DNA of 64,000 bases from a bacterium (GTDB lineage: Bacteria; Bacillota_I; Bacilli_A; RFN20; CAG-826), in contig CAVDSY010000003.1 in assembly GCA_963611815.1 (NCBI GenBank), positions 9,178 to 73,177 on the forward strand. Direction: 5' to 3'. Shown one piece after another: positions 3,842 to 58,506 of this stretch. Numbering within the stretch: position 1 is the first letter of the stretch; each line of letters begins with the position of its first letter. Below the pieces are notes generated by a model. That model did not search any database and was not told where the DNA came from. It was given only the letters and a program-made list of their open reading frames with translations. The position numbers and the translations under genes are program-made.

Positions 3842-4320
3842 CTAGCTTTCCTTCTTCTCAAAGTATTCCTTCAAATGGGAAATCACATCCTCATCTATGG
3901 AATTGGCCAAAAGGAACTCTTCGAAATCCATCGGATGCATTCTTTTCTCAATAATCGATCCCATGGGGGTCAAAGTTGTTTTTTGCATCGCGATTCCTAA
4001 CTCCGATCCGCTGCAAATGTATTTGTAACGATTGTCTAGATTCAAAAGCTTAAGCAATGTGAAAAGCTTGGGGCAGACCTGTATTTCATCAAGAAAGACC
4101 AATGTGTTCTTTCTCTCTCAGCTTTCCGCCGGCGAAAGAACCAAAGGCTAAGTAAAATGATTCGAGGGTGCTCGCATGCTCAAAAAGCCTTGCCCCGGCT
4201 TTGTCGTCCGCCATGTTGATCTCGACATGGTTTGGAAAGTGTTTTTTCGCAAGCTCACCGATTATGGTAGTTTTGCCTATTTGCCTCGCTCCATCAATGC
4301 ACAGGATATAGTTCTATCAT
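3842..4320 (-). pseudogene. remnant of AAA+ ATPase (AAA_14/DUF4143 family), 5'- and 3'-truncated with internal frameshift
   Basis: Walker A ILCIDGARQIGKTTII in one frame (4130-4300) and LDEIQ...MHPMDFEEF block in another (3842-4102); homologous to the intact gene at 29116-30456. Confidence 0.5.
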
Positions 4321-5160: not shown

Positions 5161-6132
5161 TTAGTTGCTTGCGCTTGTGCTTTTCACGACGGAGAGCTCG
5201 GTCAAGTCGCTGTAAAGAGGGTAACTTATATTGATCCCTGAGCTGCCACCGGCGTCATTCATTTGGTCGATGAAAGCATTAATTAGGCCGTTTGTTGTGC
5301 CGCTGTATGTTGTGTTTTTGCCGTCATCGTAATCAATCCATACATAGACGATGCAGGTTTTGTCGCTCGCCGCTGCGTATGTAAGGTCAAAGCTAATGGA
5401 AGCGTTTTTTGTGGTCTCAGTGGCGCCGTTAACGGTCTTCAGCGTTTTCACAAAATACTTTTGCTCTACATTCTTAAACTCATTTTTCAGCGTCTGGAAG
5501 TTGGTCTCAGAGCTGCCGCTATCCCAAGTATAGGTATGTTCGCCTCCCGTTACGGGTTCCACCATTGCCTTCACTGAGATAACGGAGGAAATGTAATTTG
5601 AGAGATCGTATTTTTGCCCAGAAGCGCCAGACGCGTCTTCACTTACTGACTCAGATGAAGAACTGTCGGTTGTCACTGTTTTGATAGCATGATCTTTATC
5701 CGTATTGTGCGTGATCGCTAAAGAAAGCTTGTTATCAGTGGTGGTGTATGTTCCGCCGCTGAGCTTGAGCTTCAATAAAATGGGGGTGTAGTCGTTGTCT
5801 TCTTGGAAGACCTGGTCATAACGCAGCAAAGAAAGATCCATCTTGCCTGTGTCATTGCCATTCGCATCTTTGATTGTTGGGTTTTCTGCGAATTCGTGGC
5901 TTCCGTTATCGTTCTGGATGTATTTGTAGACGGTCATGTCTACTGAGGCATTCTCGTCCGTTTTAACCTGGATCGCCATGCCGCTTGCGTCTACTTCTTT
6001 GTTGGATGCGAACCAAGAGAAAGTGGAGGATGTGCTGAACCAAGCAAACAACGATACCGCAAGCGTGCCCAAAGAAAGGAAATAGGCAACGCTTGCCAAG
6101 CGGAATCCTTTTCTTCTGAAGAGCTTGCTCAT
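5161..6132 (-). CDS. TasA/camelysin-like secreted protein with SipW-cognate-type signal peptide (locus 1)
   Basis: N-terminus K/R-rich, hydrophobic core, then SLFAWFSTSSTFSWFASNKEVDASGMAIQV, which parallels TFAFFSDKEVSNNTFAAGTL of camelysin and TWAAFNDIKSKDATFASGTL of TasA; paralog of 23918-24877. Confidence 0.55.
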   Translation of the reverse strand: MSKLFRRKGFRLASVAYFLSLGTLAVSLFAWFSTSSTFSWFASNKEVDASGMAIQVKTDENASVDMTVYKYIQNDNGSHEFAENPTIKDANGNDTGKMDLSLLRYDQVFQEDNDYTPILLKLKLSGGTYTTTDNKLSLAITHNTDKDHAIKTVTTDSSSSESVSEDASGASGQKYDLSNYISSVISVKAMVEPVTGGEHTYTWDSGSSETNFQTLKNEFKNVEQKYFVKTLKTVNGATETTKNASISFDLTYAAASDKTCIVYVWIDYDDGKNTTYSGTTNGLINAFIDQMNDAGGSSGINISYPLYSDLTELSVVKSTSASN

Positions 6133-6189
6133 GGGCTAATTCTACACCTGATACTTCGATTGAGCCTCTCGCATAGGAACAAAATACAG

Positions 6190-6330
6190 CCCCTGCTAGA
6201 AACCCTTTCGGGTTGGCAGCTGGCTGTCTTAGGAAGACCCTTTAGCTTTGCGTCGCCAGATTGCCCTGGCTTTGCTTTTGACGAGGGGAATTATAAGGGA
6301 TACGCGCGTACGCGCAAGGGCTAATTCTTT
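6190..6330 (-). promoter_or_regulatory. conserved structured leader (copy 1) plus relic of the giant-gene start codon region, upstream of the TasA-like gene
   Basis: nucleotide similarity to 28797-28900; hairpins GUCUU-CCUA-AAGAC and GCCAGG-GCAA-UCUGGC on the minus-strand RNA. Confidence 0.5.
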
Positions 6331-6656: not shown

Positions 6657-9214
6657 TTAGGCGCTCGAAGTCGTATCTTTAGGGGAATAGTCTTCTTTGC
6701 TGCCGGTGGCCGTTATGCCTGTTCCTGTTATGCTCGTTGTTCCGCCTGCGGTATCAACGTAATAGACCGTTATCGTTTCGTTTTCACCATCAACTGTTCT
6801 AACGCGGTAAAAATAGACTGTGGTAGGGTTGCCACTTATAGCGAAGGTTACTTTTGATGGGGTGTAATCGGATTCGGTGGTTATGTTGCCTTCGCTGTCC
6901 GTTGTTTCTTTCGTAGAGTTGATTGGCTTGATGGTTTTATCTGTAGTGTTGGAATAGTAGACGAAGTCGATGGGAGGAACTTCCTCTTCGCCCGTATCCT
7001 TTTTCCCGTCCGCTCCGTTGGCGCCGATATCGAAATACATGATGTAGGGGCAGTTGGTCGCGGAGGAATCCGCGCCGACGAAGTAATCTCCTGCGCTCAG
7101 AGGGATCTCCATGTAGTAGGCGCACCCATTTTTGAGAACGCCCTCCCCGCTCTTCCCACTGATTGGGTATATGGCGTTCAGGTCGAATATTTTCTCTGCG
7201 CCGTTAGGGATCGTCGCGGAGTCATCTGTGTATTGGTTGTAGTACTTGCCATCAAATTTGTAGATGGCGCTGATTTTCTTCGCGCTCTCGATTTGCTTCT
7301 TGTCCGTGGAACGGATAATTTCGTAAACGGAAGGCATGGCGTGCCCAGACGAGCTCGAGGCTGAGGTGTAAGTTCCGAGGATCATCTTCAGCGAGCCGGA
7401 ACTCGATAGTTCGAAGTTGAAGCCGGCTTTATACATCTCGTAGCCTGAATCGTAAGTGACACCGTTTATCTGTATATCACTGTAAGTCCCTTTTTCCAGG
7501 GCTCCGTAATTTTTAATGTCGTTAGAGCCGATTTTGTAGAGTTGGATTCCATCCAAACTGATTATGCCGCTGGCTAAGGTGTCGGGCTTGTTCTCACTCG
7601 AAATCATCTTCGCGAAATTGTGTTTAACCTTGTAGTAGCCATTCTCAATGTCACCGAAGCCGCAATCCGCGATGTCTTTGCTGTTTGAGGTCGTGCTCGT
7701 CGACCATGATTTGCCGCTGTTTTCCGTATCCGAGATGCGATAGGTGGCGTTTTCTAGATTGGTCGCCAGAGTGTCAATGTAGAAAAAAGAGAGGCTGTCG
7801 TATCCGAAAACTGGGTAAATTCCGGTGGCGTCTTTTGTCCTATCCGCTTCGGATATGGATGTAGCGCCTTTGTCTGATACGTATATCGAATAACGAATTC
7901 CGTTTTTTTAGTTTCGCTTGAACTATTCAAGTTCATCCCTTTGTTATAGAGACGCGGCGTTGCGTTGGATGATGAGATGGTGCCGTCGCCGCCTCTGCCG
8001 ACGAGATAGCCCGTATTGCTGTCTGAGACAGGCTCACCCGTATTGCTGCCTTTTGTGTAGTAGGTTCCGATGTCTTCAGTATCTATGTAAGAACTGGAGA
8101 TCGTCGCTTTATCCAAATCGATATTGAGTGGGAGGCAGGTTCCATTTTGCAAATTGACGCTTTGCCCGAGGTCCTTTGTTGTATCCCAGGTGAAAGGTGT
8201 GCTGTAGTAGTAAATGTTCGCCTTGAACCGCTCGGTCATATCGTATGCCTTCGTGGCTGATCCAGCCGTCATCCCTTTTGCCGCGGCTATGTAGGTGATT
8301 CGCTTGGCGAGGCTCGCGATGTCGATTGATCCGCCCCAGCTGCCGCTGGTGTCGCTGCCCGATCCTCCCGGCTTCCCTTTGTAGTCGAAGTGGTTTGAAT
8401 TATAAGCCCCGATCAAAGAGTGTTGGCTGAGCTTGTCGTTGTCAGCAAGTGCTCCACTGTTAATCACTGAAACATTCGCGTTTTGAAAATCGAAATAGCC
8501 TGATCTGACGCCACAATTGGTCAATTGGCCATTCGCATAGCCGGCGATTAGCCCGACGAGCGTTTGATCGGTATTGGTCTCGACGGTTAGATAGTCAAAG
8601 TAGAGGTCTTTTACTTCGTTTACTTCAACGGTGTAGCCTGTGACCTCGGCGTCGCTTTCGTATTCGCCGACGATGCCGAAGAAACCAACGATGGAGATGC
8701 TGCCTTTGACGTTGCTGTCAGCCCCGGAAGGCCAGCCGGTCTTTTTTAGATTGTCTTCGTTATTGCTGATCGTGAGGTTGCTTATTTTATAGCCCGCCCC
8801 ATTGAAGTTCCCTATGAAGGGGTATTTCGTGGTTCCTGCAGGAGGCAAATAATAACCGTCCGCGTCGATGTCGTTATTCAGTACGAAGTAGACCTGTTCG
8901 TAATCGCTGGTTTCGTTCCCGGAGGCGTCTTTTTTCTTTTTGTTGAAATACCCTGGGTCTTGCAGCCAGTTGAAATAGTAGAGCTGTTTTGGCGTTTCTA
9001 TTTGATATGCGGTTTCCGCGGTTTTCCCATCGCCTCCAGCGAAGTAGCTTCCGACGGCCGCTCCATCCACCCCATCCACTTTCTGAGTGGTCGTAGGTCT
9101 GATGAACCACGCGAGCGATGATACGCCCAAAGTGCAGCCGATGACGACGAAAGAGATCCCGAGGATCAGAATCGGTTTGTTGACGTTGCTGCGGCTTTTT
9201 TTCTCTTTCATGGG
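6657..9214 (-). pseudogene. giant GLUG-motif / beta-helix secreted protein (locus 1), reading frame broken by 1-nt shift at A7 tract (7903-7909); possibly phase-variable rather than dead
   Basis: ORFs 7754-9292 and 6657-7607 are N- and C-terminal parts of a paralog of the 1310-aa protein at 24882-28796. The frame of the second ORF stays open upstream to the A7 run, where the first frame leaves it. Start is MKEKKSRSNVNK at 9214. Confidence 0.55.
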
Positions 9215-9448
9215 CGTCCCTTTCTTAGGAACTAAGAAACGATACATCGATAGAAGGCAAAAGACAAAAGGAATAATCATGTATAAAGGCAAGGTCCGAT
9301 ATCACTATTTTCGATGCGCCGTTGTTATCAATGGTTTGCATTTCTTCTATGCTTTCAGGCCTTCTCGGCTTTGTTGATGGAAACAGATAACTTCGTTCCT
9401 AAAAGGGATGAGCAAATCCGTTAAAGCATGTAAGGAGGGAACAAACGC

Positions 9449-17413: not shown

Positions 17414-17484
17414 TTTCTGCCAAGGAACCTTTTCGCATCGCTTTTTTACGACAAACGCTTTCCGACGGCGACCCACTTAAAATG

Positions 17485-17533
17485 GTGTTTGTATGGTTCC
17501 CGTGCCGGGGGAGTAGATTCTCTATACGAACAC
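17485..17533. repeat. ~48-nt hairpin repeat, copy 1 (GTGTTTGTATGG-loop-CTATACGAACAC)
   Basis: near-identical to copy at 18482-18530; 12-bp stem with conserved 23-nt loop. Confidence 0.7.
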
Positions 17534-17788
17534 TTTCGCCCACTTTATCGCCCGCCTCGTGGATGAAACTTCACGGGATAGCCAGCAAGATTCCGCCCTC
17601 TTCGAACGTGCATGCTTTCTCGAAATATTTCAAATTGACAACGGGGGGCACCCCGATCGATTTTCTCGCTTATGTAAAGCTGAAGAAATATCTCCGAGGG
17701 CTTTTATTGGTTCTCGCCGAATGTCCTTCGAAGAAGCTGCCTTTCGTTTGAAGGGGCGCCAGGGGTGAGAAAAAGGACTCTTCCTATT

Positions 17789-18303: not shown

Positions 18304-18481
18304 TGTTTTCTCCTCCGGGGTTATTATGGATGGGGATATGTACACAAACAAGTACGTTTTTTACCTAACGAACGTTTTCAGTATGAATCAAAGTCGAGGA
18401 ATCAAGCTGGTCTCCATGGCTTCTTGCTGCTTTTTCTCGAGCAGGAAGCAGCGACCTGACGCGTTGACAAAAAGCAATGAG

Positions 18482-18530
18482 GGGTTTGTATGGCTCCCGT
18501 GCCGGCTGAGTAGCTTCTCTATACGAACAC
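18482..18530. repeat. ~48-nt hairpin repeat, copy 2; on the minus strand it is followed by a U-rich run (terminator-like) and on the plus strand it is preceded by TTGACA
   Basis: GGGTTTGTATGGCTCCCGTGCCGGCTGAGTAGCTTCTCTATACGAACAC. Confidence 0.7.
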
Positions 18531-18651
18531 CTTTAGTGGTGCCGTTTGCGTTCCCAATTGTTGATTTTGCCTTAATGGCACCGTTGTTTATTCCGTCTTT
18601 GCAGGCGTAGGCTTGTTCGGAAAACGTCTCGAAAAATGCGCCTTTTGGCGT

Positions 18652-19986
18652 CTAGTCTTTTAAGCAGGCAAGCGGGATTTCGTAGACCCCGTCCTCTCTT
18701 CTCAAAGCGACCATCCCCATGGTGACGATCATAAGAAACGCCGGCTTGCCCGTTTTCTCCTCGTCGATGTCGCCAGAAAGGGCGAGAAGCTTTTCCGCGG
18801 CTTCGTCGATGTCTTCCCGGTCGCCCATCTTGACTTCGACGAGGGCGTAGCTTCCATCTGAATATTCAATCACCGCGTCTGCTTCGCGATCCGCTTTGTC
18901 GCGGTAGTGGTAGAGCCTCGCCCCAATGGAATCGCAATAGATGCGAAGGTCCCTGACGCAAAGCGATTCGAAGAGAAACCCGAAAGTCCTCATGTCCTTG
19001 AATAAGCTCTTTGGGGTGACGCCCAAGGCGCTTGAAGCGATGGAGGGGTCAACGAAATGGCGGGTCGGCTTGCTGCGAATCGCGATTTTGCTCCGCAGAT
19101 TCGGGTTCCAAGCCTCGAGCTCCTCCGTGACATAGAGCCTTTGGAGGGCGAGGAGATATTTGCCCAAAGTCCTTTCGTTGAAGGAACCCTCGCTTGCGGC
19201 TACGTCTGCTAGAAAGGTGGAATCTGGGCATTCCGAGGAGACGTTTCTCGCGTAGGAGCGCAGCAGCTTCTTTGCCCTCGCCACGTCTTTTCTCAGGGCG
19301 ACGTCCTTCAAAGAGAAAATGTCCTCGTTCACGGTGGCATCGTAGAAATCCTTGGCTTGCTGCAAAGCGACATCCTCTTCTTGTCCGATGGCCATCGGCC
19401 AGCCCCCGCGGCAGATGAAGAAGGCGTAATCCATGATTGTCTTAGAGCAAAAGCAAGGCTTGAATTCGCCTTCGGAAAGGCTCTTCAAAGAGACCCCTCC
19501 ATCGCTGTCGAGGCTCTCGAAAAGAGACATCGGCCTCATCATCTTTCTTACAATCCGCCCTGTTCCGGTGTGACGTTCCCCTCTTTTGACTTTCTCTTTT
19601 TCGCTGACGCTGCCCGTGAGGATAAACTGACCGAAGGAGCGGCTTTTGTCTACTTGGTCCTTGATGGAATTCCAGATGAAAGAGATTTCCTGCCATTCGT
19701 CAATCATCAAAGGTTTCTCCCCCTGCTGAAGGAACAAAGTGGGGGAGGCTTTCGCGAAAGCAACGTATTGTGACTTGGTTTCCTCGATTGTGAGATCGAT
19801 GATGGTTTTGGCTTGTCTAGCGGATGTCGTCGATTTGCCGCACCATTTCGGCCCGACGACAAGAACGGCGCCTTTCGAACGAAGTGCGAACTCCAAAGTT
19901 TTGTCAAACAATCGAGGGATATAGGTTTCTTTCATTGAAACTCCTCCAAGGCGATAATAGCCTATTTGCCGAAAGAAATCATCCAA
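18652..19986 (-). CDS. AAA+ ATPase (AAA_14/DUF4143 family)
   Basis: Walker A GPKWCGKST; C-terminus ...GVYEIPLACLKD shared with the remnant at 23557-23715. Confidence 0.65.
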   Translation of the reverse strand: MDDFFRQIGYYRLGGVSMKETYIPRLFDKTLEFALRSKGAVLVVGPKWCGKSTTSARQAKTIIDLTIEETKSQYVAFAKASPTLFLQQGEKPLMIDEWQEISFIWNSIKDQVDKSRSFGQFILTGSVSEKEKVKRGERHTGTGRIVRKMMRPMSLFESLDSDGGVSLKSLSEGEFKPCFCSKTIMDYAFFICRGGWPMAIGQEEDVALQQAKDFYDATVNEDIFSLKDVALRKDVARAKKLLRSYARNVSSECPDSTFLADVAASEGSFNERTLGKYLLALQRLYVTEELEAWNPNLRSKIAIRSKPTRHFVDPSIASSALGVTPKSLFKDMRTFGFLFESLCVRDLRIYCDSIGARLYHYRDKADREADAVIEYSDGSYALVEVKMGDREDIDEAAEKLLALSGDIDEEKTGKPAFLMIVTMGMVALRREDGVYEIPLACLKD

Positions 19987-20115
19987 AATACAACCTTTGG
20001 CTTCCTTTCAATACAGGGTTTGGCTTCTTTCCGATACCAAATTTGGCTCTTCTTTTGTGCTGACGACTTTGCTTGAAGCCAGTGCGGTGAAAACATTTTG
20101 ACGAAGATCGACGTG

Positions 20116-20172
20116 GTGTTCGTATGGCTCCCGCGCTGTGGCGGTGGGGTGGATCTCATTTATAGTGTTACC
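20116..20172. repeat. partial/diverged copy 3 of the hairpin repeat (GTGTTCGTATGGCTCCCG...)
   Basis: first 18 nt match copies 1/2; lies between the ATPase gene start and the FGGY kinase gene. Confidence 0.5.
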
Positions 20173-23556: not shown

Positions 23557-23715
23557 TTAGTTTTTCAGGCAAGCCAAAGGGACGACGAAAATGCCGCTTT
23601 CCCTTTTGAGACAGGTCCCATAGCTGGTGAGAATCATCTCGAACTTTGGAAGAGGCGGCTCGCTTTGCTGGAATTTCTTTTCGAGGATGTCTTCCATTAA
23701 TTTTTCGACATACAT
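23557..23715 (-). pseudogene. C-terminal remnant (52 codons) of a DUF4143-family AAA+ ATPase gene
   Basis: translation ...ILTSYGTCLKRESGIFVVPLACLKN* matches the C-terminus of 18652-19986 (…DGVYEIPLACLKD). Confidence 0.4.
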
Positions 23716-23917: not shown

Positions 23918-24877
23918 CTATTCGGAAACCTTGATGGTGAGCTCGGTGATGTCGCTGCCCAAAGGATAACCCGCGTCGACCGTCGTCAGTTTGGACTTCA
24001 TCTGATCGATGTAGGCGTTGATGAGGCCATGCCCCTTAGCCCCGTTGTCGTAAATGCTTTGGCTGACGTCGTAATCCATCCAGACGTAGGCCGTGCAGGT
24101 TTTGATGCCTTTTTCCGAGAGGACTTCCTCATACGCCAGATTGGCGTCGTTAGAGAAGTCGAGGTCGCTTTTGCTGGCCGCCCCGGTTGAGGGGATGCTG
24201 CTCACGAAACGCTGCGCATTGTCCGCGAAAGAATTTCGCATCTCTTCGAAGTCCGCCTCCAGGGCCGAAGAGTCGCTAGACAAAGCGTTGATTTCCGCCT
24301 CGGAGAAGATGGTCTCGTCGTTATGGACCATCGCCTTTACCGAGACGACGGATGATAGATAGCTTGAAAGATGATAGGTGGCGTCATCGTCCGCGATCGA
24401 GAAATTGTCCGCGTCGCTTTCCTCCAGAGTCCAGCTGACTTCTTTGTCCTTGCTTGAATCGTGGAAAATCTTCAGGGGGAGGATGTCCCCATTTTTGTAA
24501 CTGCCCCCGTAGAGGCGAAGCTGGATGAGCAGAGGGGCGTAGTCGTTATCGTCGGTGAAGATCTGATCGTAACGCGTCAGCGAAAGCTCATCGGGGTCTC
24601 TTTGGACATGGTAGACGCCCGTTCCTTTCTTGCCGCTTTCCCCATCGTCTTCCTGCTCCTCGACGTAGCGGTAATAATGGGCCTCGATATCGACGTCGTC
24701 TTCGCCTTTTATTGATATGGACATGCCGCTAGCCTCGACCTCTTTGTTCGAGGCGAACCAAGAGAAGGTTGAGGAGGTGCTGAAATAGGCAAAAAGCGAG
24801 GTCACCAAAGCCCCTAGGGAAAGGAAATAGGCAAGCGATGCGGCTTTGAAGCTTTTCTTTCTTAACGTCTTGCTCAT
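23918..24877 (-). CDS. TasA/camelysin-like secreted protein with SipW-cognate-type signal peptide (locus 2)
   Basis: N-terminus MSKTLRKKSFKAASLAYFLSLGALVTSLFAYFSTSSTFSWFASNKEVEASGMSISI; paralog of 5161-6132; start 5 nt after the giant gene stop. Confidence 0.55.
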   Translation of the reverse strand: MSKTLRKKSFKAASLAYFLSLGALVTSLFAYFSTSSTFSWFASNKEVEASGMSISIKGEDDVDIEAHYYRYVEEQEDDGESGKKGTGVYHVQRDPDELSLTRYDQIFTDDNDYAPLLIQLRLYGGSYKNGDILPLKIFHDSSKDKEVSWTLEESDADNFSIADDDATYHLSSYLSSVVSVKAMVHNDETIFSEAEINALSSDSSALEADFEEMRNSFADNAQRFVSSIPSTGAASKSDLDFSNDANLAYEEVLSEKGIKTCTAYVWMDYDVSQSIYDNGAKGHGLINAYIDQMKSKLTTVDAGYPLGSDITELTIKVSE

Positions 24878-24881
24878 CTTC

Positions 24882-27800
24882 TCACTCCGTGGCCTCGATG
24901 GCGATTACTTGGCCTGCGCCCGTGACCGCGTTCCCGTTTATCGTGATGGAATAGTTTGAATCGCTTGGCGTGGAAATGATGGTCGCATTGCATTTCTCGC
25001 TGCAATGGACCGTGACCACGTAAGTTTTGTTGGTCGCGTCGTAAACGTATTCGACGCTCGCCTCGCCATTGTCTAAGCTGATTTTGAACTCGCCGAAAGT
25101 CTCTTCTCTTATTATCGTTTCAGGGCCCTGCCATTCGGAGGAGGCGGTCTCGCTTGCGGTCCCTGTGGCGGTTATGGTGAGGCTACCGTCGCTTTGCATG
25201 GTGACAAGCCCGCTAGAAGAGACCGCTCCCACGCTTTCGTCACCGCTTTTCCAAGTTGCTTCATTGGCGAGGAAATAAAGCTGGATCTCATCCCCTTTGC
25301 TCGCTCCGCTTATCGTCCAGGTGCAGGAGTAGGTGAGGTTGAGCGAGGTGTTGACGGGGTTGTATTTCTCGCTGGTCTCTCTTTCCATGATGACGATTAG
25401 AGGGGTGTCGCTTTTCTTCGGTAGGGCGGTGCCGGCGCTGTCTTTCACGCTCACGCCTTCTTTGGAATAGACCACTTTGACCCCGGAACTCAGGCTGGAG
25501 GTGAGGACGTTGCTTTCGTAGGAATAGTCGATTCCCTTAGAGGGCGCAAGTAAAAGAGCCACGCAGGCCGAGCCTCCTCCGCTGAGCGAAGGGAGATCTT
25601 TGAAGGAAGAGGTGAAGTCCACTCCTTTGGGGTAGTTTTGCTTGATGATGTTGGAGGTGGTCTTCTCTTTGATGGTGACCGCCTCGTAGTCCGCGGCCCC
25701 GGTGCCGATGTCTAGGTAAAGCAGATAAGCCCCCGATTTGCCGGAGACCGACCCAAGGGCGTATTCGCCGGCGTTGACGGGGATCTCGAAATAGTAGAGG
25801 CAGTTGCTAATTATGTCGCCGTCGGTGCTGGCGATCCAGCTGACGTCAAAGACAAGCTGGGAGGAGGAGCTGTTCGCTGGTACGCTGCCATCGTATGAAT
25901 AGAGATAGGGCTTCTCTTTCTTATCGTCGCCCAGATTCGCGTAGATTTTGCTGATCTGCTTGATTTCGGAGATGCTGTTGTTCTCGTCGCGGACGACCTC
26001 GTTGAGACTGAAGAAGCAGGTGTTGTTGGTGAAATACGATCCCCCGAAGAAATTGATGTAGCCTTCGGTGGCGAGATTGAAGTCGATGGAGTCTTCGGGG
26101 ACGTCGTAATTTGAATAGACCGAGCCGCTTTGTGTTGGTTTCTCATCAGTCTTGCCGTCGAGATACTCCTGCAGTTTATCTTGGTAAACCTTTTCGGCGG
26201 CCTTGTCGTAGACGATGGCCTTGCCGACCTGGCATAGGTGGTCGGTGGAGATCTGAGCGTTCATGAAGTGAAGGCCATAGAGAGCGGTGCTTGAGCTCAC
26301 GCTGCCGCTGAAGATGGTGCTCTCGAGGTTGTATCTCGCGCTGTCATAGCGCTTGAGCTTTGAGCTCTCAACGGTGGTGGATGGGATTGAGGAGCTTTTG
26401 CTAGCGGAGGAGTTGTAGTTGTCGATAACCCTTGACCAGCCCGAATCCGAATAGGCTCCGTCCTCCTCGATGCAGGAACGGGTCACCACCTGCAGATTTG
26501 AACTGTTGTATGCGCTGTAAAAAGAGGTGCTCAGGCTCGACATCTTGTATGCTTTTGAGACGCGGATGTCGCCCGCGTAGTCGCTTGAATCGATAAAATT
26601 CGCTCCCCCGACGAGATAGCCGGTGTTCATTTCCGAGACCCCGTTTATGCCGGTTTTGCTGTCCTCATCGCTGTAGCTGTAGGCCAAGGGGACGTAGGTG
26701 GGATTGACGTAATAAGCGGCGTTCCTTTCACTCGTGGAGGACTCCTTCACGCCGGTTTGTGAGGAGTCGGAGAATGAAAGACCGGTGCTGATGTCCCCTC
26801 CGGTGCCGACCTTAGCGATTGTGAAGCTGTGGGAGCTCGTGCTGGTATCGGCGGCGAAAGAAGACGAACCGTAATATAGGTAAACCGTGTAGCTGGTTAT
26901 TGTGCCTCTGAGATAGGCGCTCATGGTGCCCGTTCCAGTGCCGTCGCTTTGGGCACCAGACAAAGTGTAGCGACTGATTGCGGTGCTCCCGGTATTTGTG
27001 CTTGCGGACATGATAACGTTGAAAGTGTTGGAAAAGCCGCTTCTGGTTCTTTGCGCGCAAAGATAGAGCGTTGATGAAGTCAGGGGTCGGTAGCCGTTCG
27101 ATGACGAGTCATAGGCCCATTTGAATTCGTCGCCGCTTACGGAATCCGAAGAAGAGATCGTGCCGGAGCTGGAAGAGCCGATGTACTTCTTTGAATAGGT
27201 GTCCAAGATGGTTAGATAGGTTTCGCTTATCTCGTCTTGGACTAGCGTCCAGGCACTGGAGGTTTCATCGTAATCCAAGTAATAGGAATACGAATCGTCT
27301 GAAGAATAGATATTTCCCTTGTCTGCCTCGTAAGTCCAAGTGGTGGAGGCGCTGGAAGTCAGATAAAGGGAGTTCGATGAGCTTCTGCTGAGGTAATAGG
27401 CGGTTTCTCCGACGTAAGTGTAAATATAGCCGGACCCTCCGGCGCTTGGCATGTTCCAGCCGCAGGCGCCGGAAGAAGAGACGTCGATTAGCGTGCCATC
27501 TTCAGAGACCGAGAGGAAGTGGCCGGATTTTGAAATGGTAGGAAGATAGCCATAGACATTGCGCTTGACGCTCATCTTCTCCGAACTTGAAGTCGGCACT
27601 TCGTCAGGGGTGCCGTATATGAAAACGTAGGTGTCATCGTACGTTGATGATGTGGTGATGCCATAGGAGGCGAGCACCCCTCCATCTTCATCCTTTCTTT
27701 GGCCGTTCTTGAAATAGTATTGGGTTCCGCCGCTTTCGCTTCTGGTCGCTTTCGTCGAGGAATAGACGATGTCTTTCGGCTGGCTTTCGTTGCCGCTTGG

Positions 27801-28796
27801 GTCGACGTCGATGGTCTCTGAGGCGACGTAGTAGACATCGCTGGTGATGCTCGAGTCGCTTTGCTCGCTTTTGATGTCGTTGTACATCTGCTCCATGTCG
27901 ACCGATCCGCCCCAGTTGGTGGAACCGTGGCTTGTATTGGGGTTCTCAACCTGGGGCATGCTCATGGTCTCATCGCTGACAAGCGTTTTGGCGAGATAGC
28001 TATCGGTTGCGTAGCCGACGAGAGAATACTCGGAGACATGCTCGACCCCGGTGATGTCGGTGATTGGGGACGCCCCTGATTTGGTGGCGATCGATGAACC
28101 GTTGACGCCCACCCCTGAAAGGGTCCCGTTGACATAGCCCGCGGCGAGGCCAACCAAAGTGGAGGAGGAAGCGGAGACGATCGAAAGGGAGGATAGGCCG
28201 AGATTCTTGATCTCGTTGGCGGAAGTGTCGTAGTTATATCCGTTGACTTTGCTCTCGTCGCTTGTCGAGCCGACCACGCCGAAGAAACCGACGATCTCGG
28301 CTTGCTTCAGATTGCCCTCGCTGTCCTCTTCGGCGCGGGCGGGGACGTTGGTAAGCTCTGAATAGTCGTTAGTGATCGTGAGGTTGCTGATGGTGTGCCC
28401 GTTCCCGTCGAAGGAGCCGACGAAAGGATATTGCTCCGTCCCTGCGGGAGGAAGGGAATAGCCTTCCCCGTCGATGTCGCTGGTGAGTTTGAAATAGATT
28501 TGCTTTATTGCGGTCTTTCCGTCGTTTGGGTCGTTGAATATGCCGAGGTCCTGCAGCCAGTTGAAGTAATAGAGCTGGCGGGCGTTATCGATTTCGAATG
28601 GAGCTTCTTTGGAGCCGTCCCCTCCGTTGAAATAAGAGCCGCTGCCCTTGCCTCCTATCCCTCTTAATGCGGCGCTGGTCTGAGCTTTGGAGAGCCAAGC
28701 GAGGCTAGGGATGGCGACCAGTCCGGCGCACGACAAAAAAGCGAGCCCTAAGAAAAACGCCGCCTTCTTTTTCTTGTCTGCTAGAAAACCTTTCAT
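24882..28796 (-). CDS. giant (~1305 aa) secreted GLUG-motif / beta-helix protein with SipW-type N-terminal signal and long S/T/Y-rich low-complexity middle region
   Basis: N-terminus MKGFLADKKKKAAFFLGLAFLSCAGLVAIPSLAWLSKAQTS; the YPFVGSFDGNGHTISNLTITN and LVGLAAGYVNGTLSGVGV (GLUG-like) motifs; RBS AGGCGG; ORF track start 28814 is a TTG extension. Confidence 0.65.
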   Translation of the reverse strand: MKGFLADKKKKAAFFLGLAFLSCAGLVAIPSLAWLSKAQTSAALRGIGGKGSGSYFNGGDGSKEAPFEIDNARQLYYFNWLQDLGIFNDPNDGKTAIKQIYFKLTSDIDGEGYSLPPAGTEQYPFVGSFDGNGHTISNLTITNDYSELTNVPARAEEDSEGNLKQAEIVGFFGVVGSTSDESKVNGYNYDTSANEIKNLGLSSLSIVSASSSTLVGLAAGYVNGTLSGVGVNGSSIATKSGASPITDITGVEHVSEYSLVGYATDSYLAKTLVSDETMSMPQVENPNTSHGSTNWGGSVDMEQMYNDIKSEQSDSSITSDVYYVASETIDVDPSGNESQPKDIVYSSTKATRSESGGTQYYFKNGQRKDEDGGVLASYGITTSSTYDDTYVFIYGTPDEVPTSSSEKMSVKRNVYGYLPTISKSGHFLSVSEDGTLIDVSSSGACGWNMPSAGGSGYIYTYVGETAYYLSRSSSNSLYLTSSASTTWTYEADKGNIYSSDDSYSYYLDYDETSSAWTLVQDEISETYLTILDTYSKKYIGSSSSGTISSSDSVSGDEFKWAYDSSSNGYRPLTSSTLYLCAQRTRSGFSNTFNVIMSASTNTGSTAISRYTLSGAQSDGTGTGTMSAYLRGTITSYTVYLYYGSSSFAADTSTSSHSFTIAKVGTGGDISTGLSFSDSSQTGVKESSTSERNAAYYVNPTYVPLAYSYSDEDSKTGINGVSEMNTGYLVGGANFIDSSDYAGDIRVSKAYKMSSLSTSFYSAYNSSNLQVVTRSCIEEDGAYSDSGWSRVIDNYNSSASKSSSIPSTTVESSKLKRYDSARYNLESTIFSGSVSSSTALYGLHFMNAQISTDHLCQVGKAIVYDKAAEKVYQDKLQEYLDGKTDEKPTQSGSVYSNYDVPEDSIDFNLATEGYINFFGGSYFTNNTCFFSLNEVVRDENNSISEIKQISKIYANLGDDKKEKPYLYSYDGSVPANSSSSQLVFDVSWIASTDGDIISNCLYYFEIPVNAGEYALGSVSGKSGAYLLYLDIGTGAADYEAVTIKEKTTSNIIKQNYPKGVDFTSSFKDLPSLSGGGSACVALLLAPSKGIDYSYESNVLTSSLSSGVKVVYSKEGVSVKDSAGTALPKKSDTPLIVIMERETSEKYNPVNTSLNLTYSCTWTISGASKGDEIQLYFLANEATWKSGDESVGAVSSSGLVTMQSDGSLTITATGTASETASSEWQGPETIIREETFGEFKISLDNGEASVEYVYDATNKTYVVTVHCSEKCNATIISTPSDSNYSITINGNAVTGAGQVIAIEATE

Positions 28797-28900
28797 CAGC
28801 CGCCTTGTTGGCAACCGGCTGTCTCCAAGAGACCCATGGCTTTGCGTCGCTAGGTCGCCCTAGCTTTGCTTTTGTCGGGTTGATGATACGCGAAATGTGT
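28797..28900 (-). promoter_or_regulatory. conserved structured 5' leader of the giant gene (copy 2): hairpins GUCUC-UUG-GAGAC and GCUAGG-GCGA-CCUAGC (GNRA loop)
   Basis: aligns with 6190-6330 with compensatory base changes in both stems. Confidence 0.55.
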
Positions 28901-28989
28901 TCGCTTTCAATAGTCCTTTTGGAGGGTTGGGCGCTTGTGGAAGCGATCTTGCCGACGCGAAGGAAGCGGTCCTGAGTCTTAGCCAATCA

Positions 28990-29086
28990 TTGATTTTCAT
29001 TTAGAAAATGCAACTAAACCGCTTGATTTTCATTTAGAAAATGCAACTAAAACTTTGATTTTTCATTTAGAAAATGCAATATTCAA
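28990..29086. repeat. three tandem direct repeats (period 33 bp) each containing the palindrome ATTTTC-ATTTA-GAAAAT; putative operator array in the divergent promoter region
   Basis: TTGATTTTCATTTAGAAAATGCAACTAAA at 28990 and 29023 (identical) and a 1-nt variant at 29055. Confidence 0.8.
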
Positions 29087-29115
29087 TTTGCTTTTTAATG
29101 ATTGATGGAGGTTTT

Positions 29116-30456
29116 ATGGAGTTTAAAAGGAAGGTATATAGCCAAATGAAGGAGTGGAAAGATGAAAGAAACAAGAATTCCGCTCTTTTGATTGAAGGAG
29201 CTAGGCGCGTGGGAAAAACGACGATCGTCAAGGAGTTTGCCAAAAACGAATACGACGGTTTCATTTATATAGATTTCACTTATGCTCCCGACGAAGTCAA
29301 AAGCCTTTTTAAGAAGATAAACCCGGCCAATCGGCTTTCCATGGACCAGTTCTTCTCAGATTTGTTTCTGCTTTTTGGAAAAACGCTGAAGAAAGGAGAT
29401 TTGATCATTTTCGATGAGGTTCAGCATTTCCCATTGGCAAGGCAAGCGATAAAGGCGCTCGTCTCCGATGCCAGATACGACTACATAGAGACAGGCTCTT
29501 TGATTTCCATCCGTGAGAATACGCAGGACATCCAAATCCCTTCCGAAGAAAGAAGGATCGAGATGCACCCCATGGATTTTGAGGAATTCTGCTGGGCTTT
29601 TGGCTGGAACGAGAAATGTGAGATGCTCCGCGCGATATGGGATCAGCGCAAGACGATCAGCGAAAGCGCCCACAGGCTTTTGATGGATGATTTCAGACTC
29701 TACTTGGCTTTGGGGGGGATGCCGAAAGTCGTCTCTTTGTATCAAGAGACCCACTCATTCATGCGCTGCGAGAAGGAAAAGCAGGACATATTGAAGCTAT
29801 ATGAGGACGATCTGAGAAAGCACGACAACAAATCGAGGACGCGGACATTGGATATCTATGATTCCATGCTTCCTTCACTCAAAACCTGGTCGAGGAGAGT
29901 GAAGACGAACAATCGGAGTTCCAGCATGGCCCTATCCTATCAAAGGTCGCTCAAAGATCTTGAGGACTCCAAAATAGTGAACGCGGTCTACCGCTGCCAA
30001 GATTTGAGTTTCGGCACTTTCATGAAGGAAGAGAACGATTTCAAACTTTATCCCCTCGATGTCGGGCTTATGCTCAGCTCTTTGATTGGCGATGCGAACG
30101 ACGATTGCGAGAAGACGTATCTCAAAATAAGGACTGGAAAGCTGGATGGGGCCAATTTCGGAGTTCTGTACGAATCGCTGGTTGCCCAAAGCTTGGCATG
30201 CAACGAAAGGAAGGTCTTCTATCACACCTTCGAGTACGGCGAGAAAAGATATGAGATCGACTTCGCCACCTTCATAAAAGGAAAGATGAATGTGATTGAG
30301 GTCAAATCGACGAAGCGTTTCACGACTTCTTCTTTGTCTTCTTTGAAAGCTAAATACCCGCAGCTGAAGTTCGATAAGTTAGTCGTCTCGCCCAAAACCC
30401 TCAGCTATGACGCCGAGACGACTTACCTTCCTATTTATATGACTTTCCTGCTCTAA
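29116..30456 (+). CDS. AAA+ ATPase (AAA_14/DUF4143 family)
   Basis: Walker A LIEGARRVGKTTIV; Walker B LIIFDEVQ; RBS gatggagg; intact paralog of the remnant at 3842-4320. Confidence 0.65.
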   Translation: MEFKRKVYSQMKEWKDERNKNSALLIEGARRVGKTTIVKEFAKNEYDGFIYIDFTYAPDEVKSLFKKINPANRLSMDQFFSDLFLLFGKTLKKGDLIIFDEVQHFPLARQAIKALVSDARYDYIETGSLISIRENTQDIQIPSEERRIEMHPMDFEEFCWAFGWNEKCEMLRAIWDQRKTISESAHRLLMDDFRLYLALGGMPKVVSLYQETHSFMRCEKEKQDILKLYEDDLRKHDNKSRTRTLDIYDSMLPSLKTWSRRVKTNNRSSSMALSYQRSLKDLEDSKIVNAVYRCQDLSFGTFMKEENDFKLYPLDVGLMLSSLIGDANDDCEKTYLKIRTGKLDGANFGVLYESLVAQSLACNERKVFYHTFEYGEKRYEIDFATFIKGKMNVIEVKSTKRFTTSSLSSLKAKYPQLKFDKLVVSPKTLSYDAETTYLPIYMTFLL

Positions 30457-47735: not shown

Positions 47736-49289
47736 TCACTTGGCGATGCCAGTCGCATACTTGACGATGTAAATCGCAAGGAAGGCAGCGGAGCAAGCGG
47801 CGACGGCGATGTCGTCTTTCTTGAAGCGCCCGGCGACGAGGGTCATGATCGTGTAAGTGATGAAGCCCCAAGCAATGCCATCAGAGATGGAGTAGGCGAC
47901 GCACATGACGATGACAGTGATGAAACCGGAGCCGACGGCAATCCAATCTTTCCACTCGAGATGCTCAAGGTTTTTGAACATGCAGATGCCGACGTAGACG
48001 AGAGCGAGCCCGGTGACTGCGCTGGTGGAGAAGGCACTCAAGGCAGGATAGACGAGGAGGCTGAGCCCAAAGAGAAGGCCGGTGACAACGGCGGCAAGGC
48101 CGGTGCGAGCGCCGGCGGCGACGCCAGTGGTGGACTCGACGAAGGAGGTGACGGTGGTGGTGCCGCAGATGGAGCCGAAGACGGTGCCGACGGCATCGAC
48201 GATCATCGCGGGTTTGTCGTTAACGGTGATGTTGCCATCGGCGTCAACCATGCCAGCGCCAGCTTCGACTCCGACCAAAGTGCCGGTGGTGTCGAAGAAG
48301 TCAACGAAGAGAAGGGAGAAAGTGAATGCGTAAGCCATCGGCTGAGCAAAGACATCGAAGCCCATGAAGCAAGATCCGAAGATTTTGCCGATGTTTCCAA
48401 CGGAAGTGATGCTGTAGCTGCTGTCGTAGAAAGGGGCGAATCCGGAAACGCCAGCAGAACCCATGGAGCCGCAGACGATGGCCATGACGACGATGGCGAT
48501 GATGACGGAGAATTTGTTGATCCAGAAGCAGACTTTGCTCTTTTGGGGCAAGGCGGAAAGGGCGATGACGATGATCACTCCGAGAAGGCCCATGAGGACG
48601 GTCGGCTCTTTGAAACTGCCAAGGGCGACGAGGGTCGGGCCATCGGCGATGATGCCCATGTTCTGGAAGCCGATGAAGCAGATGAAGAATCCGATACCTG
48701 CGGAGATGGCAAATTTAAGCGACTTCGGGATGTGGCGGACAATCCAGCCACGGAGAGGGGTGATCGAGATGATTAAGAAGAGGATGCCATCGACCATGAC
48801 GAGGCACATCGACTGAGCGAAGTTATAGCCAAGGCCGAGCATGACATTGTAGGCAATCAATGAGTTGAGGCCAAGACCAGAAGCAAGCCCGACGGGGAGT
48901 TTGCCGTAGAATCCCATGAAGATTGTGGTAACGGCGGCCGAGATGGCGGTGGCGGCGAAGACGGCGGCGCGGACATCGCTGACGGTGGCCCAAGTGTCAC
49001 CATAAATAAGGATGTAGGTGATGTCGCCAATGATTTTGGTGTTCGAATTGCCAATTGCGGCGGCGGTTCCGGCCCATTCGGTGGAGAGCATGTTCGCGTT
49101 AAGCGGCAAGATGTAGAACATCGCAAGGAAGATGACGAGTCCGCCAATGAGTTCCTTTATGATGCTGCTCCCGCGGTTGCTGATCTGGAAATAGTTGTCA
49201 AGCCAACTTCCGAATTTGGTTTTCGGTGACCAGCCTTTGGGGTTGTTGCTCTCGGGTGAAGTTTCAACAGTTGAAACAGCTTCAGCCAT
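47736..49289 (-). CDS. NCS2 family purine permease (AzgA/PbuG-like guanine/hypoxanthine permease)
   Basis: 517 aa polytopic protein with AzgA-type blocks; preceded by a guanine riboswitch-like leader. Confidence 0.75.
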   Translation of the reverse strand: MAEAVSTVETSPESNNPKGWSPKTKFGSWLDNYFQISNRGSSIIKELIGGLVIFLAMFYILPLNANMLSTEWAGTAAAIGNSNTKIIGDITYILIYGDTWATVSDVRAAVFAATAISAAVTTIFMGFYGKLPVGLASGLGLNSLIAYNVMLGLGYNFAQSMCLVMVDGILFLIISITPLRGWIVRHIPKSLKFAISAGIGFFICFIGFQNMGIIADGPTLVALGSFKEPTVLMGLLGVIIVIALSALPQKSKVCFWINKFSVIIAIVVMAIVCGSMGSAGVSGFAPFYDSSYSITSVGNIGKIFGSCFMGFDVFAQPMAYAFTFSLLFVDFFDTTGTLVGVEAGAGMVDADGNITVNDKPAMIVDAVGTVFGSICGTTTVTSFVESTTGVAAGARTGLAAVVTGLLFGLSLLVYPALSAFSTSAVTGLALVYVGICMFKNLEHLEWKDWIAVGSGFITVIVMCVAYSISDGIAWGFITYTIMTLVAGRFKKDDIAVAACSAAFLAIYIVKYATGIAK

Positions 49290-49424
49290 AGTCTTTTCCT
49301 CCTATTCAATATAAGTAAGACTTGTCTTTAGGAGGTAATGACGTCGGGAGCTTTGGTGCAAACAAGGAAGAAAAACGCAAAAGGAGAGCAGTTCTTTCGG
49401 CGATGTTTTCTTCTTTGTTTCCTT

Positions 49425-49502
49425 TCTTAGCTCGTAGTGCCTGACTTCATGGATCAAGCGTAGAGACTGCCGGACCATATCCCCGACATATACGACCTAT
49501 CG
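49425..49502 (-). promoter_or_regulatory. purine riboswitch (guanine type, C at the specificity position) in the 5' UTR of the purine permease gene; expression platform sequesters the SD
   Basis: Minus-strand RNA has P1 (AGGUCGUA), J1/2 (UAU), P2 (GUCGGG / UCCGGC) with L2 (GAUAUGG), J2/3 (AGUCUCUAC), P3 (GCUUGA / UCAGGC) with L3 (UCCAUGAAG), J3/1 (AC), and P1 3' strand (UACGAGCU). Anti-SD CCUCCU (49330-35) can pair with SD AGGAGG (49300-05). Confidence 0.55.
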
Positions 49503-49635
49503 ACGTTAAGTAACTATATATAAAGAAAACGGTTTGCAAACATGAAAGCGGTTTAACGCTAAATTATCTTCCTAGCCCCTTTTTTGCCTTTCTCCCTATG
49601 TTACAATAATCGGCTAGAAAGAAGGTACCCAATCC

Positions 49636-57811: not shown

Positions 57812-57902
57812 TCTAGAGTAGAGAAGTCGCGTTAAGTGCCTGAGGATGGGAGGTCGCCTCTGGACGAAGGAGCAATCCGCGGTGCCTTCTCGCTGCCGCT
57901 AT
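57812..57902 (+). promoter_or_regulatory. THF (tetrahydrofolate) riboswitch upstream of an ECF transporter S-component gene
   Basis: AGAGUAG...CGCGUUAAGUG...AUGGGAGGUCG...ACGAAGGAG...CGCGGUG...GCUGCCGCU matches the conserved blocks of the Eubacterium siraeum THF aptamer almost position for position. Confidence 0.6.
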
Positions 57903-57939
57903 AAAAAGCTTACCTCCCTGCCGTGGAAGGAATTTTGGC

Positions 57940-58506
57940 ATGGGGAAAAGAGATTCTTTGATTCGCCGCATGTGCGCTGACGGGATGCTTGTCGGCCTTT
58001 TTGTGGTCCTGACGCTAGTAAACGTCAAAATCGGTCCGATGGTGAGAATCAGCTTCGGCTCTTTGCCGGTGGTTTTCTCCGCTCTTCTCTTTGGACCAGT
58101 CGATGGCCTAATAGTTGCCGTGCTTGGCGAGTTCATCTGTCAAACGATTAATTACGGCTTCTCACTGACTACTCCTTTATGGATTCTGGTCCCGGGAATA
58201 AGGGCTTTGGTCATCGGTTTTGTTTCATCTCTTTTCAAAAAGAAAGGGATGGCCCTTGAAAGACATCCGCTTCCTTATTTCGCGACATTGGTCATCGCCG
58301 CTCTTTGTGTTACCGCGCTCAATACCCTTGTCTCTTTCTTGGACGCTTTGATCTTCGATTACTCATTCACCATCGTTTGGCTGACGACGCTTATCCGCCT
58401 TGGCATAAGCATAGCCACCTCGATTGCCATCGGCCTAGTTTGCATTCCCCTAACAAAATCAATCGGTTCATTGGTTTTCCCGGGTAGTAAAGACAAATAT
58501 CATTAA
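57940..58506 (+). CDS. folT: ECF transporter S component (folate-family, FolT-like)
   Basis: 188 aa, 5-6 TM; follows a THF riboswitch. Confidence 0.55.
   Translation: MGKRDSLIRRMCADGMLVGLFVVLTLVNVKIGPMVRISFGSLPVVFSALLFGPVDGLIVAVLGEFICQTINYGFSLTTPLWILVPGIRALVIGFVSSLFKKKGMALERHPLPYFATLVIAALCVTALNTLVSFLDALIFDYSFTIVWLTTLIRLGISIATSIAIGLVCIPLTKSIGSLVFPGSKDKYH

Follow-up and report, generated by a model that had tools for sequence, protein, structure and literature searches.

A c-di-GMP-I family aptamer abuts the start codon of a gene for a giant, apparently secreted protein and probably acts as a translational ON switch

The DNA analyzed was a 64,000-nt stretch of a bacterial contig (the window). 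Its minus strand encodes a 1304-residue protein (the giant gene), followed after 4 nt by a gene for a 319-residue protein that is probably co-transcribed with it (Table 1). The start of the giant gene was placed at the ATG at 28796, where the N-terminus MKGFLADKKKK aligns with the starts of the orthologues. The mechanical open reading frame (24882..28814) begins at a TTG at 28814, which lies inside the RNA aptamer described below and was rejected as a start. The giant protein has an N-terminal hydrophobic (membrane or signal) helix, a domain modelled with confidence (residues 60–265) and, near the C-terminus, a Big_2 domain, the sole Pfam domain detected. In the PDB, the modelled domain significantly matched a single entry, 3n6z, a beta-helix-like 'putative IgA1 protease' domain (E = 8e-4, TM ~0.25), and NCBIfam contained no family for the giant protein. 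A paralogue of the 319-residue protein, 323 residues long, is encoded at a second locus in the window. For these two proteins, nothing significant was found in Pfam and nothing in NCBIfam; the 319-residue protein also gave no significant PDB fold match, and its family is small (26 clusters). The giant and 319-residue proteins look secreted or surface-exposed and may serve in adhesion.

Table 1. Coordinates of the genes and RNA features at the two aptamer loci of the window
Feature	Position	Strand	Basis and details
Giant gene, 1304-residue protein (apparently secreted or surface)	24882..28796	-	ORF list, orthologue starts
319-residue protein gene, 4 nt downstream of the giant gene	23918..24877	-	Paralogue of the gene at copy 1; 39% identity to 5161..6132
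Promoter-like site of copy 2	28883..28910	-	-35 TTGAAA (28910-28905), 16-nt spacer, -10 TATCAT (28888-28883); 10/12 consensus matches
Copy 2 c-di-GMP-I aptamer, key bases	28807..28880	-	Predicted +1 G 28876; position 20 = A 28870; A47 = 28843; C92 = 28811
Copy 2 P2 hairpin GCUAGG-GCGA-CCUAGC, GNRA-type tetraloop	28849..28864	-	Sequence and Rfam alignment
Copy 2 P3 helix: base AGCC/GGUU, GG/CC, tip GUCUC-UUG-GAGAC (28833-28821)	28813..28841	-	Sequence and Rfam alignment
Copy 2 predicted RBS-sequestering hairpin, loop AACAA	28797..28817	-	Minimum-free-energy folds
Shine-Dalgarno-like AAGGCGG	28800..28806	-	Sequence; AAGG core 6 nt before AUG
Copy 1 c-di-GMP-I aptamer	6212..6286	-	RF01051, 58.1 bits; A at position 20
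Copy 1 terminator platform	6178..6227	-	42-nt stem ACAGCC...GGCUGU (6227-6186) and AUUUUGUU (6185-6178); minimum-free-energy and centroid folds
323-residue protein gene, predicted target of copy 1	5161..6132	-	ORF list; 39% identity to the 319-residue paralogue

Scanning the whole window at the curated thresholds of Rfam yielded four riboswitches: two of the c-di-GMP-I type, one for THF and one for purine. The leader of the giant gene (copy 2) was one of the c-di-GMP-I (GEMM-I, RF01051) aptamers, at 28880-28807 on the minus strand, with a score of 57.4 bits, the gathering score of RF01051 being 35 bits, and covariance-model E values of 6e-11 in a 301-nt stretch and 1.3e-8 in the whole window. 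The matches of both copies were full-length (model positions 1–87 of 87) and lay on the strand of the downstream genes, and no match to a class II c-di-GMP riboswitch was found in the window. When the scan was run in permissive mode, the top-scoring member of the clan was c-di-GMP-I-UAU (RF03168; 63.5 bits for copy 2 and 55.0 bits for copy 1); membership of this family was rejected, since both scores lie below its gathering score of 65.9 and positions 20/47/92 are A/A/C, not U/A/U. The class of riboswitch is already known, and annotation with Rfam by standard means would label copy 2.

After alignment of copy 2 to the RF01051 consensus, the hairpins GCUAGG-GCGA-CCUAGC and GUCUC-UUG-GAGAC corresponded to the P2 and P3 stems, and the junction GCAAA...GACGCAAAGC...GCC was intact. 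Positions in Vc2 numbering (20, 47 and 92) were assigned by reading this alignment. The initial annotation had given both hairpin sequences correctly, as they are present on the minus strand, but had placed them 20 nt too low, the first at 28829-28844 instead of 28864..28849 and the second at 28801-28813 instead of 28833..28821. The ribosome-binding site that it implied is where expected, with AAGGCGG at 28806..28800 and ATG at 28796..28794, and it was right to see here a structured 5′ leader that acts in cis on the giant gene, although it did not recognize the element as a c-di-GMP-I aptamer with the two hairpins as P2 and P3. The counterpart copy to which it referred was recovered at 6286..6212 both by Rfam and by a repeat finder, which matched 28839-28877 to 6245-6283 at 87% identity; exact and 3-mismatch searches of the window with the copy 2 leader returned nothing but copy 2 itself, copy 1 being too diverged. 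Folding of copy 2 as a single sequence was unremarkable (z = -1.6, with 12 of 200 shuffled sequences folding equally well), and the case for copy 2 therefore rests on the covariance model and the comparative data, not on folding energy.

To collect relatives, one genome per species was scanned using the 319-residue protein gene and its paralogue in the window, which gave four loci (L001–L004), all four with a c-di-GMP-I aptamer ~80 nt upstream of the homologous gene. Although the loci are clearly homologous, their contigs carry the labels Paludibacteraceae, Parasutterella excrementihominis, 'bacterium' and Erysipelotrichaceae, and at least some of the MAG bins or labels must be wrong. A search with the giant protein returned full-length homologues with 35–58% identity, plus one that is 99% identical (GCA_963628075.1), and the contexts of eight giant-gene homologues were fetched (L005–L012). 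A c-di-GMP-I aptamer was present in front of the giant gene in all eight. Among the seven more distant loci (35–58% identity), the aptamer lies directly before the giant start in six, while in L012 it precedes a 390-residue protein gene that itself precedes the giant gene. Five giant-gene loci contain a second aptamer, located before a downstream gene of ~300 residues. JGI metagenome contigs were also scanned with an IUPAC pattern of the aptamer subtype, and none matched. Two public gene calls swallow the riboswitch: in L005 (3001-6933) the call for the 99% identical homologue starts at a TTG inside the aptamer (1310 residues), and in L011 (2264-6550) the call for a 1428-residue homologue starts upstream of the whole aptamer at 2415-2491.

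From these sequence comparisons, two arrangements are conserved, one with the aptamer abutting the giant gene and the other with an aptamer and terminator before a gene of ~320 residues. Since both were found in other genomes, neither arrangement in the window is a recent accident. The two copies are indeed placed differently relative to their genes, as had been proposed, with copy 1 ~80 nt upstream and followed by a terminator and copy 2 abutting the start codon; the accompanying implication, that copy 2 is the normal copy and copy 1 precedes a damaged locus, is not supported, because both arrangements are conserved elsewhere. An origin of the giant-gene leader by recent duplication of copy 1 was also rejected, as the aptamers of orthologues with 48–58% protein identity already abut the start codon.

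Covariation was analyzed by imposing the Rfam structure on 18 related aptamers. Predicted pairs were formed in 96.3% of cells, compared with 16–40% when the pairing partners were slid by 1–3 columns, and double (compensatory) changes were found in 9 of 20 pairs; none of 500 column shuffles reached the observed values. Compensatory double changes occurred in five of the six P2 pairs and compensatory changes in four of the 12 P3 pairs, with 95.6% of P3 cells paired. C92 and the GCAAA core were invariant in all 18 aptamers, and A47 and the GACGCAAAGC stretch were nearly so, L006b having A at the C46 position (GACGAAAAGC). By the covariance model, the covariation and the presence of the aptamer before homologous genes in 11 other loci, copy 2 is far above chance. 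It belongs to the c-di-GMP-I family by every sequence and structure criterion applied, the one exception being G20A, a variation already known.

A conserved promoter geometry was found upstream of these leaders (n = 18). In the 17 leaders scored by script, a -10-like hexamer ends 6–8 nt ahead of the invariant G with which the aptamer opens, and in the remaining one, L009a, a TATACT box 6 nt before this G was read by eye. A -35 element of the form TTGnnn or TTTnnn lies a further 16–18 nt upstream of the -10 element in 16 of the 17 scored leaders; the exception is L006a, for which the best candidate, TGCCCC, has two of six matches. From this -35/-10 geometry we infer a probable transcription start at, or directly beside, G 28876, which is the first nucleotide of the aptamer. 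The true 5′ UTR would then be ~80 nt, not 104 nt: the span of 28797-28900 assigned earlier is too long at its 5′ end, where 28883-28910 is promoter-like and the leader probably begins at ~28876. The related aptamers likewise seem, from their sequences, to begin at +1, with essentially no conventional 5′ strand of P1.

The base just before the G-C pair that opens P2 (position 20) is G in the consensus and A in copy 2 (28870). G20 is the Hoogsteen partner of one guanine of c-di-GMP. Both copies in the window have A20, as do 17 of the 18 related aptamers; only the most distant, L012, has G. Copy 2 has the base seen in GEMM-Ib where the c-di-GMP-I consensus has G20. Rules for ligand specificity were taken from two studies (PMC6140456, PMC9262584). 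That the same fold instead recognizes 3′,3′-cGAMP, or is truly bispecific, is considered fairly unlikely. A20, shared by nearly all relatives, is typical of cGAMP riboswitches, in which A replaces G20, and the Vc2 G20A mutant binds both c-di-GMP (53 nM) and cGAMP (120 nM) tightly (PMC6140456). Position 20 is described as contributing to selectivity, not as an absolute filter (PMC9262584). However, A20 by itself does not give cGAMP selectivity: G20A is a known natural variation in the family with which c-di-GMP binding survives, and Cbe 1-2, a natural A20 aptamer of Clostridium beijerinckii, favors c-di-GMP (30 nM) over cGAMP (463 nM) (PMC6140456). The highly cGAMP-selective examples are from Geobacter, where the ligand is made by a Hypr GGDEF enzyme (PMC8835794, PMC6456294), and the surface-protein gene context of copy 2 suits c-di-GMP biology, as c-di-GMP riboswitches often control adhesion and surface proteins (PMC11477304). 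c-di-GMP is considered the likely physiological ligand of copy 2. No cyclase of any kind was seen, and no GGDEF, EAL or HD-GYP motif was found, in 193 kb (window and related loci), which is uninformative for the rest of the genome. The substitution of A for G20 throughout the lineage bears on selectivity between c-di-GMP and cGAMP, and a broader proposal, for which the probability is judged to be low, is that this clade of gut-Bacillota leaders forms a cGAMP-responsive or dual c-di-GMP/cGAMP-responsive surface-protein regulon outside the Deltaproteobacteria, on P1-less aptamers that start at +1.

The expression platform of copy 2 was predicted from the 10 nt between the aptamer end and the ATG together with the 3′ part of the aptamer. 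A consensus scan of 28700-29150, which covers the aptamer-to-AUG stretch, found no terminator-like site on the minus strand. CGGUUGCC (28817-28810), made up of the 3′ side of the P3 base followed by G91, C92 and C93, can pair with GGCGGCUG (28804-28797), which extends from the Shine-Dalgarno core through the last base before the AUG. The resulting hairpin was present in the minimum-free-energy folds of copy 2, and in the ligand-free ensemble the eight bases of GGCGGCUG were paired with probabilities of 0.86–1.00. The calculated energies were -33.2 kcal/mol for the free state and -28.3 kcal/mol for the aptamer-constrained state, and on this model the gap of 5 kcal/mol can be paid by nanomolar ligand binding. 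Analogous, differently spelled helices were found in orthologous leaders (CUGGUUGCC/GGUAGUCAG in L007, UGGCUGCC/GGCAGUCA in L008a, and also in L006a and L011a). When duplex energies were compared with those of shuffled RBS windows, the combined p value was 0.0075 (individual p = 0.02–0.83), with the sequestering helix not evident in two of the seven orthologous leaders (L009a and L010a). Sequestration of the ribosome-binding site is thus the likely mechanism as modelled, with copy 2 located in the 5′ UTR, sense to the downstream gene, and carrying a predicted platform that competes with the aptamer.

The proposed mechanism is as follows. RNA synthesis would start at G 28876. Without ligand, CGGUUGCC would pair with GGCGGCUG, burying the Shine-Dalgarno sequence up to the AUG and keeping translation off. 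When the cyclic dinucleotide is bound, the full P3 helix would form and the ligand would capture C92; the sequestering hairpin could then not form, the ribosome-binding site would be freed and the giant protein made, probably along with the co-transcribed 319-residue protein. Because the aptamer and the sequestrator cannot form together, ligand should free the ribosome-binding site, which predicts a translational ON switch. A c-di-GMP riboswitch that turns on translation of the giant gene is, taken as a whole, a probable explanation of the locus. Copy 1 would follow the same logic, with an intrinsic terminator replacing the RBS sequestrator. The 5′ arm of its terminator is the 3′ strand of P3 plus C92 of the aptamer, and because of this overlap copy 1 is predicted by folding to be a transcriptional ON switch; terminators of this type are conserved in L001–L004 and L006b.

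The opposite polarity is judged to be quite improbable. The Shine-Dalgarno sequence directly adjoins the aptamer, only 4 nt past it, and once folded around its ligand the aptamer could stand in the way of the ribosome; an OFF switch could thus arise if the compact bound aptamer occludes the ribosome-binding site, or if an extended P1 (UCAUCA 28887-28882 with UGAUGA 28798-28793) buries the AUG, for which the 6-nt upstream complement exists, and class I c-di-GMP riboswitches of Clostridioides difficile are OFF switches (PMC11477304). However, UCAUCA overlaps the predicted -10 box TATCAT and is probably not transcribed, the complement to the AUG region is not kept in orthologues whose -10 boxes lack CAT, and a large asymmetric loop would part the extended P1 from the aptamer core. 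The extended P1 was rejected: its complementarity arises incidentally from the -10 box TATCAT and the start ATGA. In addition, the Shine-Dalgarno sequence is already sequestered in the ligand-free fold, leaving nothing to turn off, and the paralogous copy 1 shows clear anti-terminator (ON) logic.

It is scarcely credible that the hairpins arose by chance or are remnants of decay and regulate nothing, or that they form an intrinsic terminator of the plus strand (GCTAGGTCGCCCTAGC then TTTGCTTTTG): a consensus scan did return a plus-strand terminator-like site at 28849-28864, and the z-score for single-sequence folding is modest, but chance and decay are effectively ruled out by the full-length covariance match, well over the curated threshold, and by conservation of the element, with compensatory changes, before orthologous genes down to 35% protein identity, and the plus-strand site is an antisense artefact, as no plus-strand gene ends upstream of it, the plus strand there is antisense to the giant ORF, and its T-run is simply AAAAGCAAAGC, a conserved stretch of the aptamer, read on the opposite strand.

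Well-known c-di-GMP-I riboswitches include Vc2 of Vibrio cholerae and Cd1 of C. difficile. Copy 2 resembles this class in its two-hairpin architecture, conserved junction, A47 and C92, 5′ UTR location and association with surface/adhesion-type genes (PMC11477304). It differs from the consensus in having A20 and, apparently, essentially no 5′ strand of P1, and is predicted to act as an ON switch at the level of translation, whereas its class I counterparts in C. difficile turn expression off at transcription (PMC11477304). An A at the equivalent of Vc2 G20 is shared with GEMM-Ib riboswitches (Geobacter Gs1761, Gm0970 and pilM) and with the bispecific Cbe 1-2 (PMC6140456), and copy 1 resembles the pilM ON switch, where either the aptamer or the terminator can form but not both (PMC9262584). 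Unlike GEMM-Ib, the host here is an uncultured, gut Bacillota-like bacterium, not Geobacter, and the genes appear to encode surface proteins instead of exoelectrogenesis functions; in Cbe 1-2, the precedent from Firmicutes, c-di-GMP is the preferred ligand (PMC6140456). A short P3 and similar spacing throughout are shared with c-di-GMP-I-UAU (RF03168), but copy 2 lacks the name-giving U at positions 20 and 92 and its score is below threshold. As with the c-di-GMP-II riboswitches of C. difficile (adhesins, type IV pili), high c-di-GMP is predicted to switch surface proteins on (PMC11477304), although the RNA folds are unrelated.

Platforms of c-di-GMP riboswitches in Gram-positive bacteria are mostly transcriptional (PMC11477304). 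The predicted ON polarity, the predicted translational platform in a genome of Gram-positive type (PMC11477304) and the apparent position of the aptamer at +1 are mildly unusual; none of these three traits is a new kind of mechanism, and what is known of the riboswitch class is unchanged by copy 2. The giant and ~320-residue protein genes probably belong to a surface/adhesion program controlled by c-di-GMP. For a family of very large secreted proteins that lack annotation, and for their 320-residue companions, the riboswitch provides a regulator and a likely signal in uncultured gut bacteria. The two copies also provide a natural comparison of RBS-sequestrator and terminator platforms on one aptamer lineage in one genome.

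Several further sequence features were noted around the two leaders. The first codons of the giant ORF, GAAAGGTTTTCTAGCAG (28794-28778), are identical at 16 of 17 positions to part of the copy 1 terminator, GAAAGGGTTTCTAGCAG (6209-6193), with an estimated chance expectation of ~1e-5; in the orthologue L006a the identity is 12 of 17. This suggests either ectopic conversion between the leaders or an ancient origin shared by the coding start and the terminator. Upstream of copy 1 (6657-9292, minus strand), two ORFs of 512 and 316 residues match the giant protein, the first its N-terminal part (40% identity) and the second residues 895–1036 (27% identity). The same two-ORF layout is found in L004 (6830-9810), while other genomes contain single paralogues of ~770–820 residues; the pair represents either two genes or a single one whose split is conserved, and Rfam detected no riboswitch ahead of them.

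Fragments of AAA_14/DUF4143 ATPase genes adjoin both c-di-GMP-I riboswitch loci (3890-4313 and 23560-23649, both on the minus strand), and a link with rearrangement of the two loci is possible. Intact copies are located at 18652..19986 and 29074..30456, and the giant gene of L007 also has an AAA_14 neighbor. Just upstream of the plus-strand copy at 29074..30456, in the divergent intergenic region, 28990-29088 consists of three tandem 33-nt units (TTGATTTTCATTTAGAAAATGCAACTAAA...), each with the small palindrome TTTTC-ATTTA-GAAAA, which look operator-like. A ~50-nt repeat occurs at 17484-17536, 18481-18533 and 20098-20136, with copies 77–89% identical and containing a long inverted repeat (GTGTTTGTATGG ... 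CTCTATACGAACAC); it gave no Rfam match at gathering thresholds and is not an AAA_14 gene fragment. The remaining two riboswitches from the Rfam scan were a purine riboswitch at 49415-49515 on the minus strand (59.7 bits), upstream of a xanthine/uracil-family permease gene (47736..49289), and a THF riboswitch at 57812-57903 on the plus strand (64.8 bits), upstream of an ORF at 57940..58506.
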